In this document: positions 14,417 to 15,674 of the stretch, piece after piece
Layout of the letters: each line of letters starts with the position of its first letter
How positions within the stretch are numbered: the first letter of the stretch is position 1
IMG/VR virus record: IMGVR_UViG_2645727970_000008
DNA: 15,836 nt
DNA from: a virus
Lineage: Duplodnaviria; Heunggongvirae; Uroviricota; Caudoviricetes
Direction: 5' to 3' (one strand)
The notes under the pieces: generated by a model
What the model was told of the DNA's origin: nothing
The model's input: the letters and a program-made list of their open reading frames with translations, nothing else
Database searches by the model: none
Position numbers and translations under genes: made by a program

Positions 14417-14465
14417 CCTCCGGTTAAGGATTAAATTTTTAACAGAGCTAAATTTAATTATTCAG
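14417..14465 (-). repeat. Copy 2 of an approximately 50-nt conserved intergenic block (about 85 percent identical to 15682-15732)
   Basis: Plus-strand cctccggttaaggattaaatttttaacagagctaaatttaattattcag against cctccagttaaggattaaattttatttacagtgctgaacttaattattcag. It overlaps the last codons and stop of the upstream gene. Confidence 0.8.
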
Positions 14466-14814
14466 TTCTGGATTTTGTCGCCCTGCGTATCCGCGCTTTC
14501 GCGTTACGCTCAATCTGAATTAGCTTTTCTATATTTTTTCGCCTTTCCCGCTCCTCCTGACGCAAGAGCCTTACATCATCTGCCAGTCTGGTTTCTCTTT
14601 TCGCCACAGAGAGCATCCAGTCAAATGGTTCCACAACTGCACCGCAGATTTTACAGCGGACCTGACGCTCTTTTTCGTCAACCCGGACAGAGGCGTGATG
14701 ACAATATGGTCTTTCCGATGGCTCATAAAGAAAATTAACCTGATTACGAGGGTCATCCTCTTTTACCGGAAATAAAACGATATTGCTTAACTCATCCTCT
14801 GGTTTTATTTCCAT
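14458..14814 (-). CDS. Hypothetical protein with zinc-ribbon-like motif and basic C-terminus (118 aa from ATG 14814)
   Basis: Start at the internal ATG preceded by GGAGAGGAG (track ORF starts at 14871). Motif CHH-x16-C-x2-C, then an Arg/Lys-rich tail. Confidence 0.55.
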   Translation of the reverse strand: MEIKPEDELSNIVLFPVKEDDPRNQVNFLYEPSERPYCHHASVRVDEKERQVRCKICGAVVEPFDWMLSVAKRETRLADDVRLLRQEERERRKNIEKLIQIERNAKARIRRATKSRTE

Positions 14815-14935
14815 GCTCCTCTCCTTTGATGCGAATGCCAGCGGTAATTGAAGCCTGATAGCTAATTTCACTCACAGTACCGCCTCCTGAAAATTTAATG
14901 AACAATTCAATACGTTCTTTGGTAATAGTGGTCAT
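14792..14935 (-). CDS. Possible small ORF (47 aa), translationally coupled on both sides
   Basis: ATG 6 nt after an AAGGAG that overlaps the upstream stop. Its stop overlaps the start of the next gene. Below the track cutoff. Confidence 0.35.
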   Translation of the reverse strand: MTTITKERIELFIKFSGGGTVSEISYQASITAGIRIKGEEHGNKTRG

Positions 14936-14945
14936 GTGTTACTCC

Positions 14946-15209
14946 TTAACCCGCAGTGCTTTCAACTGATGAGGGGAACAAAATCTTTTCATCAAACCCT
15001 GCATTCATATCATGAACAGCAACACACCAATCCATCGACGAACGATTATCAAGAGCCTCCATGATTTCATCCATGCGGCGTAGGTCATACAGGTAAATGC
15101 TTTTATCGCCAATGGTGTAAAAGCCAATTTTTTTCGGTGATGGACAGCGATCAAGAACTTCCTGTAATTCGTTCAACCATGCCCGTTCTTTTTTTGTCAA
15201 AGTTGCCAT
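14946..15209 (-). CDS. Hypothetical protein (87 aa from ATG 15209)
   Basis: ATG with AAGGAAAA Shine-Dalgarno lying in the last codons of the upstream gene. The track ORF extends to 15299 through an alternative start. Confidence 0.55.
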   Translation of the reverse strand: MATLTKKERAWLNELQEVLDRCPSPKKIGFYTIGDKSIYLYDLRRMDEIMEALDNRSSMDWCVAVHDMNAGFDEKILFPSSVESTAG

Positions 15210-15210
15210 A

Positions 15211-15429
15211 TCAGTTTTCCTTATACGGATTAATTTTATTGTGCAGTGTGTTGAATGACGCCCATACCACGTCGTTATACAATTCAGTAACTGGCTCAAT
15301 TATTTTCCCGATTGCCCAGACAAAAATTAGAGGGGATATCGGTATCATCAATACGATAAACAGAATGAGAAACAAAAATTCTGTCGCCCTACTTTTTTGC
15401 GGATATTCTTTTCTGAATAATGTAGTCAT
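15211..15429 (-). CDS. Small single-pass membrane protein (72 aa)
   Basis: ATG ORF with one strongly hydrophobic segment (FLFLILFIVLMIPISPLIFVWAIG). Preceded by the GGAGG-hairpin leader. Confidence 0.55.
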   Translation of the reverse strand: MTTLFRKEYPQKSRATEFLFLILFIVLMIPISPLIFVWAIGKIIEPVTELYNDVVWASFNTLHNKINPYKEN

Positions 15430-15434
15430 TTCTT

Positions 15435-15456
15435 ACCGCCCTTTCGGGCGGCCTCC
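15435..15456 (-). repeat. Copy 1 of conserved leader hairpin (GGAGG-CCGCCC-GAAA-GGGCGG-T), 6 nt upstream of the ATG at 15429
   Basis: Identical 22-nt block to 14371-14392. Confidence 0.8.
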
Positions 15457-15461
15457 CGACA

Positions 15462-15674
15462 TTAATCGTTGTGGTAACTCATGGCTTCATTTGCAGCATC
15501 AACCGGATCAACCTCCCACCAGCAATAATTTGGTGCGTTTCCTTCAGGTGTCCACGGTTCCAATTCATTTTTTGCCACATTCTCGTCGCCAGTAATTTTA
15601 AAAATCTGCTCAGAGAATTTTTTCACCCACTCGTTATATTTTTCAGTGTTAATAATTTTCTGTGTATTTGACAT
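15462..15674 (-). CDS. Small acidic hypothetical protein (70 aa)
   Basis: ATG with GGAGGT Shine-Dalgarno at about 8-nt spacing, supplied by the conserved intergenic block. Confidence 0.6.
   Translation of the reverse strand: MSNTQKIINTEKYNEWVKKFSEQIFKITGDENVAKNELEPWTPEGNAPNYCWWEVDPVDAANEAMSYHND

Follow-up and report, generated by a model that had tools for sequence, protein, structure and literature searches.

Five small open reading frames, here g1 to g5, lie closely packed on the minus strand between positions 14458 and 15674 of a 15,836-nucleotide stretch of viral DNA (the window), which raises the question as to whether they form a functional unit and, if so, what this unit does. A sequence-only reading of the window had taken them for an operon and, given its combination of a membrane protein and a zinc-ribbon protein, had likened it to small abortive-infection or exclusion modules. 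Our analysis points elsewhere. The five ORFs very probably belong to a mosaic nin region in a defective lambdoid prophage of E. coli/Shigella, with accessory genes that would act singly. Genes of the nin region, which separates the replication genes from the Q-type late antiterminator, are non-essential.

The sequence itself is already known: hundreds of E. coli and Shigella genomes carry annotated prophage DNA identical to it. NCBI PGAP calls the same five CDS, 100% identical, in an E. coli O111:H2 prophage, and the coordinates first read from the letters alone are thus borne out in RefSeq, all on the minus strand. In the identical prophage, the upstream side reads Cro, YdaT, O-like, DnaC-like, DUF1627 and DUF977, followed by g1 to g5; after g5 come DUF7167, hokD, DUF968, RusA, DUF1133 (Q-like), a methyltransferase, tRNAs, lysis genes and terminase. 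The annotation of NZ_CP077479.1 shows g1 to g5 co-directional with their neighbors, between O-like/DnaC-like/DUF1627/DUF977 and hokD/DUF968/RusA/DUF1133. In its placement between replication genes and a Q-type antiterminator, its close packing, and its mosaic content, the cluster agrees with a nin region.

Like the lambda ninR region and the wider nin pool, the cluster occupies the slot between the replication genes and Q, runs in the direction of the pR operon, and consists of small ORFs with overlapping or abutting stops and starts whose mosaic content varies from phage to phage. Unlike the lambda region, g1 to g5 are not homologous to NinA-I or NinX/Y/Z of lambda/P22, and the prophage is of the DUF977/DUF968/RusA/DUF1133 Q-like type rather than the lambda type. 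The lambda nin genes have been called "a chain of interlinked genes" (Kroger & Hobom 1982, as quoted in PMC10695390). The nin pool of lambdoid phages as a whole (Juhala 2000; Casjens 2004; as cited in PMC5630979) comprises ~30-50 genes, with ~10 per phage; these genes are non-essential, and illegitimate recombination is thought to be their origin (PMC5630979). Lambda with all nin genes deleted still forms plaques (PMC10695390), and the nin genes are dispensable for plaque formation in both lambda and Sf6 (PMC10695390, PMC5630979). With all of its ORFs in catalogued phage families, and a mosaic, dispensable nin region so well described, the cluster carries little weight as a discovery.

The individual products largely match their first description. 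The first gene, g1 (15674..15462), encodes a 70-aa cytosolic protein of family phrog_4659 that is indeed acidic (pI 4.5). The 72-aa product of g2 (15429..15211; Pfam DUF4014/phrog_1832) is a small membrane protein with a basic N-terminus ahead of one hydrophobic stretch (~residues 17-43), in line with the single membrane pass ascribed to it. An 87-aa acidic alpha/beta protein (pI 4.9; phrog_1714) is encoded by g3 (15209..14946), and g4 (14935..14792) is a 47-aa chimeric junction ORF. The 118-aa product of g5 (14814..14458; phrog_1621) combines a CHCC zinc ribbon with a basic helix, and the CHH...CxxC motif and basic tail attributed to it correspond to C38-H39-H40...C54-x2-C57 and RIRRATKSRTE. 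Downstream of g5, also on the minus strand, lie a DUF7167 gene (14364..14182; 60 aa, pI 4.05) and g7 (14189..14013), whose 58-aa acidic product (pI 4.05) matches the C-terminal part of phrog_519. The claim that stops, starts, and Shine-Dalgarno sequences overlap throughout holds for three of the boundaries: g2 and g3 are separated by 1 nt (TGAtATG), the TAA stop of g3 lies within the AAGGAG Shine-Dalgarno sequence in the 10-nt gap before g4, and g4 overlaps g5 by 23 nt. It fails for g1 and g2, where a 32-nt gap is occupied by a stable hairpin.

We examined the company that these genes keep in 80 IMG/VR loci carrying g5 at 99% identity or above. All of g1 to g5 are present in about 12 of the 80. 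The commonest arrangement, found in around 50, is a DUF977 or Ea22-like gene followed by g5, DUF7167, and g7; others read g5-g1-g2-g3-(300 aa), g5-g1-g2-HNH, or g5-g1-DUF7167. In phage ArgO145, g5, g1, and g2 are found in the early-left Ea22 region, without g3. Among 5426 complete E. coli genomes, 2416 have parts of the cluster and 216 have 80% or more of its length at a single site, and none of 50,697 phage records contains the whole cluster. The idea of a five-part unit does not hold up, as the genes assort independently and the 47-aa ORF is an artefact of a recombination joint. Within this pattern, g1, g2, and g3 stay together in several arrangements, so that a functional link among these three is possible. 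The genes g1, g2, g3, and g5 come from a pool of accessory delayed-early genes common to lambdoid phages, and their present order is one clonal mosaic variant built through exchanges at short conserved linkers.

The clearest trace of such an exchange is g4. Its codons 1-14 come from the beginning of a 300-aa gene, which elsewhere stands after g3, and the remainder consists of the out-of-frame 3' end of DUF977 and the spacer preceding g5. Beginning at the g4 ATG, 42 nt are identical to one related locus (L074), and the 79 nt before the g5 ATG are identical to another (L008; 83 nt with at most two mismatches); the joint lies at about 14894-14897, with a microhomology of 3-4 nt. The last 16 aa of g4 are the C-terminus of ArgO145 gp18, an Ea22-like protein whose gene sits before g5 in that phage. 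The resemblance to Ead/Ea22-like early-left genes (lambda and Stx phages) is confined to the end of g4: its last 16 codons equal the 3' end of the ArgO145 gene, and 8 of these match the 3' end of lambda ea22. Unlike the Ea22-like genes, g4 has no Ea22 domain and shares just the conserved 3' linker, which carries the ribosome-binding site of g5. At the DNA level, these sequence identities prove g4 to be a by-product of a recombination joint, and the microhomology joint has thereby yielded a spurious annotated "gene."

Two kinds of short linker served for these exchanges: a ~65-nt AT-rich spacer found after g5 and before g1 (linker R), and a 26-nt cassette consisting of a Shine-Dalgarno sequence, a hairpin, and an ATG. 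The two copies of linker R are direct repeats (D1/D2), 81-90% identical to each other. The copy at 15675..15739 (minus strand) is AT-rich, contains the GGAGG Shine-Dalgarno sequence of g1, and opens with a fragment that resembles the end (~15 nt) of a gene of the g5 type; the copy at 14410..14472 (minus strand) overlaps the last 15 nt of g5. Linker R follows g5 in all related loci. We considered and set aside an internally deleted g5 between DUF977 and g1, of which just ~15 nt of the g5 end and linker R are recognizable; the 39 nt preceding this g5-like fragment match nothing else, so that a deleted g5 copy upstream of g1 stays unproven.

The 26-nt cassette is present in two exact copies in the window, against an expectation of 0. 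Copy 1 (15430..15459, minus strand) reads GGGAG, then the hairpin, 5 nt, and the ATG of g2, and copy 2 (14365..14395, minus strand) lies ahead of the DUF7167 gene. The hairpin, GCCGCCC-GAAA-GGGCGGU, has a 7-bp stem and a GNRA loop, and the 46-nt stretch that contains it folds with a free energy of -18.6 kcal/mol (z = -4.4). A scan of 81 sequences (the 80 related loci and the window) found the cassette in 76, ahead of different genes. The GCCGCCCGAAAGGGCGG hairpin was rejected as a terminator, having no U-tract on either strand and receiving no call in a terminator scan. The lambda boxB hairpin is bound by N protein at the nut site; as a candidate boxB, the hairpin here has a lambda-like stem but a tetraloop, no boxA, and the wrong position, and it was likewise set aside. 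A parallel is offered by phage T4 genes 38 and 25, in which discontinuous ribosome-binding sites are bridged by a hairpin. Like these, the cassette comprises a Shine-Dalgarno sequence (GGAG), a stable 7-bp GNRA hairpin, 2-7 nt, and AUG; by analogy, folding of the hairpin would set the Shine-Dalgarno sequence at a normal distance from the start codon. It differs from the T4 sites in being a repeated linker at module boundaries. With low probability, the cassette may be a portable element for translation initiation and module exchange alike.

Immediately upstream of linker R, the window ends in IS1. Its right end (15741..15836, minus strand) encodes the InsB C-terminus in the same reading direction as the cluster, with 66 bp between the insertion and the start codon of g1. 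The translated end of the window is the InsB C-terminus over 26 letters, at least 5000 plasmids have annotated IS1 transposase ends that match its final 96 nt at 100% identity, and the match to the IS1-free prophage stops at window position 15739. A reading of this end as lambda DNA near exo (the exo-xis region) is ruled out by its identity as the IS1 right end and by the position of the cluster in a nin region. The Sf6 nin region is interrupted by IS911 (PMC5630979), so that an insertion sequence inside the nin region of a Shigella/E. coli lambdoid (pro)phage has a counterpart there; the differences are that the element here is IS1, that it lies in an intergenic remnant rather than a gene, and that its transposase is co-directional with the nin genes.

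The insertion stands between the cluster on one side and DUF977 with the replication genes on the other. On the coding strand, a scan with a simple sigma-70 consensus, which weak or unusual promoters or IS1-driven expression may escape, returned one weak promoter-like site only and, overall, fewer sites than in shuffled sequence. In place of the operon proposed at the outset, g1 to g5 are one part of a long delayed-early (pR-type) unit, with no convincing promoter of their own by the consensus scan. Our model is that g1 to g5, lacking their own promoter, would normally be transcribed only upon induction, as part of an antiterminated pR-type transcript, and translated by way of coupled or overlapping stop-start sites and the SD-hairpin-AUG cassette. 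As IS1 cuts the cluster off from pR, any expression in the window would probably need read-through from IS1. The cluster can serve as a worked example of how a lambdoid accessory region is assembled, through linker exchange, a microhomology joint, and disconnection by IS1.

All five ORFs match PHROG profiles over their full length (phrog 4659, 1832, 1714, 19884, and 1621; E values from 2.4e-36 to 1.8e-56), and all of these families are catalogued as of unknown function. Homology to ordinary lambdoid early-gene families had been named in advance as evidence against a special module, and it was found insofar as the five ORFs fit catalogued phage families. The g2 protein matches DUF4014 at 91.3 bits (cut-off, 23.2) across model positions 1-72 of 72, and phrog_1832 with an E value of 1.8e-45; the label of that family, "released from the phage...", is worded like the one given to the product of P22 gene 20, which is unrelated, and so may have been carried over. 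No named nin family of lambda/P22 was matched in Pfam, and neither tblastn nor profile searches of lambda and P22 produced a significant hit, so that no homology to their named early or nin genes was found for g1 to g5. The first reading, too, had seen no match to a nin-region or replication gene; g5 is a recurrent nin-region gene. NCBIfam held no family match, Rfam no known RNA family match across the cluster region, and a literature search found no paper on DUF4014 or the six RefSeq protein accessions. Solved-structure sequence searches (g1, g3, g5, and a g5 profile) returned only sub-significant S27e zinc-ribbon and coiled-coil matches.

Under the accessory-gene explanation, g2 would be a small inner-membrane protein, g1 and g3 small acidic cytosolic proteins, and all the products would be dispensable modulators of lytic growth, working singly rather than as a five-part machine. 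This view draws on context and analogy. A more specific version, compatible with it, is that one or more of g1, g3, DUF7167, g7, and g5 are host-takeover or anti-defence factors, each acting alone early in lytic growth. We rate this as tentative and rather unlikely. Small acidic proteins such as g1, g3, DUF7167, and g7 would suit it, as would the highly mosaic early regions in which they occur (ArgO145 has these genes among its Ea22-like early-left genes), the occurrence of the g1 family in Escherichia and Shigella only, as might be expected if its target were host-specific, and the confident predicted fold of g3, for which solved structures give no relative. Acidity and small size are weak indicators, however, and the libraries searched, none of them a dedicated anti-defence library, hold no characterized anti-defence homologue. 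The g3 family occurs in Enterobacterales prophages, and a search of the g3 model against BFVD matched unnamed viral proteins only. Two protein families here are worth experiment: g3, with its confident fold and no solved relative, and the widespread zinc-ribbon/helix family of g5.

The g5 protein has a disordered N-terminus with an ELSNVVxFP motif, a CHCC zinc ribbon, and a ~55-residue basic helix that holds the very conserved segment NIEKLIQIERNAKARIRR. Its predicted ligands C38, H40, C54, and C57 are invariant across 33 sequences; in 44 distant relatives, C54 and C57 remain invariant, and C38 and H40 are kept in at least 90%. Strands are predicted at 43-46 and 51-54, flanked by two knuckles. 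Sequence conservation and the structure model, which is confident for residues ~40-118 only, thus indicate four conserved putative metal ligands in a TFIIB-type zinc ribbon layout. Residues 36-73 score 21.6 bits against PF08271 (TFIIB zinc ribbon), under the Pfam threshold of 29, and the best Foldseek match of the model in the PDB is the TFIIB N-terminal domain, a generic zinc ribbon (E = 0.14). The family comprises more than 1600 clusters at 50% identity, with no Pfam family and no solved structure. Most likely, g5 would be a zinc-stabilized factor that forms oligomers by way of the long helix and has nucleic acid, or else a protein of the host or phage, as its binding partner.

The neighbors of g5 relatives invite a more specific reading. 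In Serratia the order is NinB-NinE-NinX-YbcO-RusA-g5-...-holin, in Yersinia NinB-NinG-NinH-g5-75aa-Antiterm(PF03589)-holin, and in Photorhabdus and Erwinia the relatives lie directly upstream of QuuD-like or DUF1133-like Q genes. It is conceivable, at low probability, that the g5 family is an unrecognized conserved phage factor in the delayed-early/late transition or in the handling of recombination intermediates. By this account, which we think quite improbable, g5 regulates the switch from delayed-early to late expression, or recombination, together with Q or RusA/NinG. The role would explain the position directly upstream of Q-type antiterminators and beside RusA/NinG/NinH, and it draws on the retention of this slot, between RusA/NinG/NinH/YbcO and Q, in all four genera, the TFIIB/S27e type of the ribbon, and the almost invariant basic helix of so large a family. 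Yet g5 in E. coli lies far from Q, opening the nin region behind DUF977 in some cases and belonging to the early-left Ea22 region in others, so that adjacency to Q is not obligatory; nin-region gene order may mirror history as well as function, and the zinc-ribbon score falls below the Pfam cut-off.

Small nin-region proteins with similar elements exist in P22, namely, NinF (a zinc knuckle) and NinZ, a short helical protein encoded just before gene 23/Q, in the slot taken by relatives of g5 in Yersinia and Serratia. Profile comparison gives faint similarities, of 9.9 bits between the g5 helix and NinZ and of 9.2 bits between the CxxC knuckle and NinF; neither is significant (E = 0.04-0.07 in a database of only 1395 ORFs). 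Unlike the P22 pair, g5 joins both elements within one 118-aa protein.

The proposal that the g2 membrane protein and the g5 zinc-ribbon protein, with the others, form a prophage-expressed abortive-infection or superinfection-exclusion module fares worse, and we consider it very improbable. Some defence systems do contain small membrane proteins and zinc-ribbon proteins, exclusion genes are frequent in prophages, and hokD/sok is located 1.2 kb downstream of the cluster. No cluster protein matched PADLOC-DB 2.0 at an E value of 0.01 or below, however, the only match listed being g5 against a type II methyltransferase model (E = 0.033). Nor do the genes behave as a co-occurring set: g2 is absent from most g5 loci, distant g5 relatives have none of g1 to g4 within about 4 kb, and no conserved pairing of g2 with g5 is seen. 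The genes also lie inside a repressed delayed-early unit with no clear promoter by the consensus scan, and one supposed component, g4, is a junction artefact.

Finally, that the ORFs are chance reading frames rather than genes is scarcely credible: they are short, and g4 is truly accidental, but variation shows a third-position bias, conserved motifs survive down to 45-55% identity, the PHROG/Pfam matches are full-length throughout, and strong Shine-Dalgarno sequences precede the starts of g1, g2, g4, and g5. Variable sites at codon positions 1/2/3 number 5/4/39 in g5 and 0/5/13 in g3, a bias that marks both as true coding sequences and, for g5, shows strong purifying selection. The bias is weaker in g1 (7/9/19) and g2 (15/12/26), and only one allele of g4 was seen, which makes the codon-position test uninformative for that ORF. 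By these sequence measures, g1, g2, g3, and g5 are real small genes.

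The sequence-only reading had called five consecutive ORFs at 14458-15674, and these are indeed present: in the 100% identical prophage of E. coli O111:H2 strain 12A, the NCBI annotation pipeline gives exactly the same five coding sequences. All lie on the minus strand: g1 (15674..15462; 70 aa, pI 4.5), g2 (15429..15211; 72 aa, with a basic N-terminus and a single long hydrophobic stretch), g3 (15209..14946; 87 aa, pI 4.9), g4 (14935..14792; 47 aa), and g5 (14814..14458; 118 aa, with C38-H39-H40, C54-x2-C57 and a basic tail). The tight packing proposed for them holds from g2 onward. 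One base separates g2 from g3, ten bases separate g3 from g4, with the g3 stop codon inside the g4 Shine-Dalgarno sequence, and g4 overlaps g5 by 23 nt. It does not hold between g1 and g2, where a 32-nt gap contains a stable hairpin.

One possibility is that these are chance reading frames. Across related loci, variable sites concentrate at the third codon position in g5 (5/4/39 at positions 1/2/3) and g3 (0/5/13), and less so in g1 (7/9/19) and g2 (15/12/26), so these four are real coding sequences and chance is excluded for them. For g4, of which only one allele occurs in the related loci, we accept that explanation. The window matches L074, a related locus in which the ATG of g4 opens a 300-aa gene (MTTITKERIELFIKNPLENG...), at every base from the end of g3 to nucleotide 42 of g4. 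From there to the g5 start codon it is identical to a second locus, L008, in which the counterpart is the last ~20 bases of DUF977 (...NFQEAVL-stop) and then the non-coding DUF977-g5 spacer. The joint falls at about 14894-14897, where the bases TAA(A) are common to both sides. Thus, g4 consists of 14 codons of one gene, an out-of-frame gene end and an intergenic spacer, and is a chimeric junction artefact. Its last 16 codons also encode the C-terminal end of an Ea22-like protein whose gene lies ahead of g5 in ArgO145, an Stx2a phage, and the end of lambda ea22 matches 8 of them, because this segment is a conserved 5' leader with the g5 ribosome-binding site.

To place the cluster, we examined its surroundings. 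The window covers the right-hand half of a lambdoid prophage, in reversed orientation. Its minus strand reads IS1, g1-g5, a DUF7167 gene, a 58-aa gene (g7; 14189..14013), a frameshifted gene, hokD/sok, DUF968, RusA, a DUF1133 (Q-like) gene, a DNA methyltransferase, two tRNAs, a SASA-family esterase, holin, lysozyme and lysis protein, and terminase; iraM, located between the tRNAs and the esterase gene, is encoded on the other strand. In an IS1-free prophage, g1 is immediately preceded by DUF977, DUF1627, a DnaC-like ATPase, an O-like initiator, YdaT and Cro, the last facing a LexA-family repressor gene. With replication genes upstream and a Q-like gene downstream, g1-g5 therefore occupy the nin region, the stretch bounded by the replication genes and the late antiterminator.

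The window closes with 96 bases of IS1, its right end (15741-15836), which encode the C-terminus of InsB and read the same way as g1-g5. Alignment to the uninterrupted prophage, copies of which are without IS1, ends at 15739, so IS1 lies upstream of g1, 66 bp from its start codon. The insertion site is a remnant between DUF977 and g1, with insB pointing towards g1-g5, and the element thus stands between the cluster and both DUF977 and the early rightward promoter. Scanning the coding strand for promoter consensus gave a single weak promoter-like site, within g1, and fewer such sites overall than in shuffled sequence; no terminator was found by scan within g1-g5. We infer that the genes would be transcribed only within the antiterminated early rightward transcript, and would be translated by coupling and via the hairpin between g1 and g2, with products acting singly during lytic growth.

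The next question is whether the five belong together. Among 80 IMG/VR loci encoding g5 at >=99% identity (counts approximate), about 12 have the window order g1-g2-g3-g4-g5, while ~50 have a DUF977 or Ea22-like gene, a spacer, g5, DUF7167 and g7. About two each have g5-g1-g2-g3-(300-aa gene), g5-g1-g2-HNH, and g5-g1-DUF7167-g7-...-g5-g1, and in about four g3 lies elsewhere, following an unrelated 163-aa gene. In ArgO145, g5, g1, DUF7167 and g7 sit amid Ea22-like genes in the early-left region, g2 stands apart, with an HNH endonuclease gene as its neighbour, and g3 is missing. Of 5426 complete E. coli genomes, 2416 contain parts of the 1217-bp cluster, yet only 216 carry at least 80% of its length in one place, and the complete cluster occurs in none of 50,697 phage records. 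An identical 126-nt DUF977/g1 junction is common to all loci with the five-ORF order, which is therefore one clonal mosaic variant. The cluster is not a unit; its members assort independently.

Two short repeats mark the module boundaries. The first, an AT-rich linker of ~65 nt (linker R), lies before g1 (15675-15739) and again overlapping the last 15 nt of g5 (14410-14472), as direct repeats, 81-90% identical, that flank g1-g5. In related loci it invariably follows g5, which explains the circularly permuted orders (g5-R-g1... versus R-g1...g5-R). The second is a 26-nt element composed of (C/T)(A/G)GGAG, GCCGCCC-GAAA-GGGCGGT, 2-7 nt and ATG, with two exact copies in the window (none expected), before g2 (15430-15459) and before the DUF7167 gene (14365-14395). 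It occurs in 76 of 81 sequences (the 80 related loci plus the window), always on the sense strand, and precedes DUF7167 (62 times), DUF4014, the g2 gene (17), and others including a 202-aa gene. The 46-nt stretch with its hairpin has a free energy of -18.6 kcal/mol. Since no U-tract follows, an intrinsic terminator is ruled out. Hairpin-bridged ribosome-binding sites are known, for example in T4 gene 38, and folding here would place the Shine-Dalgarno sequence at a normal distance from the AUG. The element may both bridge a ribosome-binding site by its hairpin and act as a linker for recombination. Relaxed homologous recombination is proposed as a driver of lambdoid mosaicism (PMC2327257, PMC3945230), for which short conserved linkers of this kind are expected substrates.

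Taken together, g1-g5 are very likely a typical nin-region piece of a lambdoid prophage. The nin pool comprises about 30-50 small genes, about ten per phage, which are non-essential in the laboratory and thought to originate from repeated illegitimate recombination; the nin region of phage Sf6 likewise contains an IS element (PMC5630979). In lambda, the entire region can be deleted with plaque formation retained, and its genes were early on termed a chain of interlinked genes (PMC10695390). The cluster works as this accessory pool does.

All five ORFs have full-length matches to catalogued families of unknown function (phrog_4659, phrog_1832, phrog_1714, phrog_19884 and phrog_1621, for g1 to g5), so the proposed lack of known function stands, although the proteins themselves are not new. 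Their DNA is present and annotated in hundreds of genomes. They belong to no named lambda/P22 nin family, in agreement with the sequence-only reading. NCBIfam gave no match, and sequence searches found no relatives of solved structure. g2 is Pfam DUF4014 (91 bits against a cut-off of 23). The g1 family is limited to Escherichia and Shigella, every member having at least 67% identity and the majority >84%. The phrog_1832 family (ArgO145 gp12) is labelled "released from the phage upon host infection," text identical to that on the P22 ejection protein gp20 (gene 20; 10069-11484 in the P22 record), and this label may be annotation carry-over rather than evidence on g2. That individual small acidic proteins are host-takeover or anti-defence factors is compatible with all observations but has no positive evidence, and we regard it as rather unlikely.

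The g5 family is large. Homologues down to 45% identity occur in Klebsiella, Kluyvera, Salmonella, Serratia, Yersinia, Erwinia, Pluralibacter and Photorhabdus, and a profile search of 1.84 billion representatives returned 1617 clusters at E <= 0.001. The enterobacterial set (33 sequences) has an invariant N-terminal ELSNVVxFP, C38/H40/C54/C57, and a C-terminal LRxEExxRRxNIEKLIQIERNAKARIRR. Distant members keep the zinc knuckles and helix (in the 44 compared, C54 and C57 never vary, and at least 90% retain C38 and H40) and match only phrog_1621, phrog_8538 and phrog_4865, all of unknown function. In the structural model the N-terminus is disordered, two short strands lie at the zinc site, and residues 63-117 form a single helix (pLDDT >90). 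Foldseek with this model returned only a generic TFIIB zinc ribbon (E = 0.14), and the Pfam TFIIB-type match is below threshold (21.6 against 29). Because its ligands are conserved, its basic helix hardly varies and its family keeps a fixed place ahead of Q, g5 is most likely a zinc-stabilised protein that would oligomerise via its long helix and bind a conserved partner, nucleic acid or protein.

Distant relatives keep to one place, the distal end of the nin region: NinB-NinE-NinX-...-YbcO-RusA-g5-52aa-204aa-holin in Serratia, NinB-NinG-NinH-g5-75aa-Antiterm(PF03589)-holin in Yersinia, and immediately upstream of QuuD-like or DUF1133-like genes in Photorhabdus and Erwinia. None has any of g1-g4 within about 4 kb. 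A role in the late switch or recombination is suggested by this synteny in some genera only and contradicted by the variable place of g5 in E. coli, making it improbable; that the family represents a conserved, hitherto unrecognised factor in the transition from the delayed-early to the late phase is equally doubtful. Very unlikely is the abortive-infection or exclusion module to which the membrane and zinc-ribbon proteins had been likened, since a PADLOC search matched no defence model, g2 and g5 are unlinked, the consensus scan gave no promoter beyond the weak site in g1, and one "component," g4, is an artefact.

Several minor observations concern g5 records. Its start is annotated variously, giving 118 or 132 aa (14814-14871; proteins P0008, P0002, P0013, P0040), and single genomes fuse it to Ea22-like, DUF977 or DUF1133 proteins, probably through the 23-nt overlap with the upstream gene and frameshifts; homologue alignments favour the 118-aa start. 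Copies at 97-98% identity in a Collinsella MAG scaffold (L088) and a 233-bp Ursidibacter contig (L092) are likely mis-binning or E. coli prophage contamination. Matches at 91% identity occur in the Actinobacillus phage vB_Apl-pPE4 record (hit H13).

Downstream, the frameshifted gene (13651-14016, minus strand) is likewise frameshifted in the RefSeq copy, where it is annotated as a pseudogene, and locus L041 carries an intact 119-aa version (MSEINYQEGHEKAGQAKPVAWRYRYVKKGVTDFQGKQW...). An ORF at 13351-13569 (minus strand) encodes a small, very hydrophobic protein, 59 aa from its ATG (MKNALQFLFVAFWLF...IEYWR). It is kept as a 59-aa ORF in L008 and unannotated in the identical RefSeq prophage, where 13093-13650 is without a CDS. 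The hokD toxin gene and sok antisense RNA (Rfam RF01794, 106.7 bits; 12937-13261), a type I toxin-antitoxin pair typical of Qin-like prophages, lie 1.2 kb downstream of g1-g5. Further on (7709-7898, 8595-8844) are the two tRNA genes downstream of the Q-like gene and, on the opposite strand, the sRNA STnc100 (Rfam, 132 bits), which overlaps a partial pseudogene CDS after iraM. In its layout this stretch recalls the late-regulatory region of Stx-type phages, except that stx is absent here. The CAT-anticodon tRNA, called Met by ARAGORN and Ile by RefSeq, is probably a lysidine-modified tRNA-Ile2.
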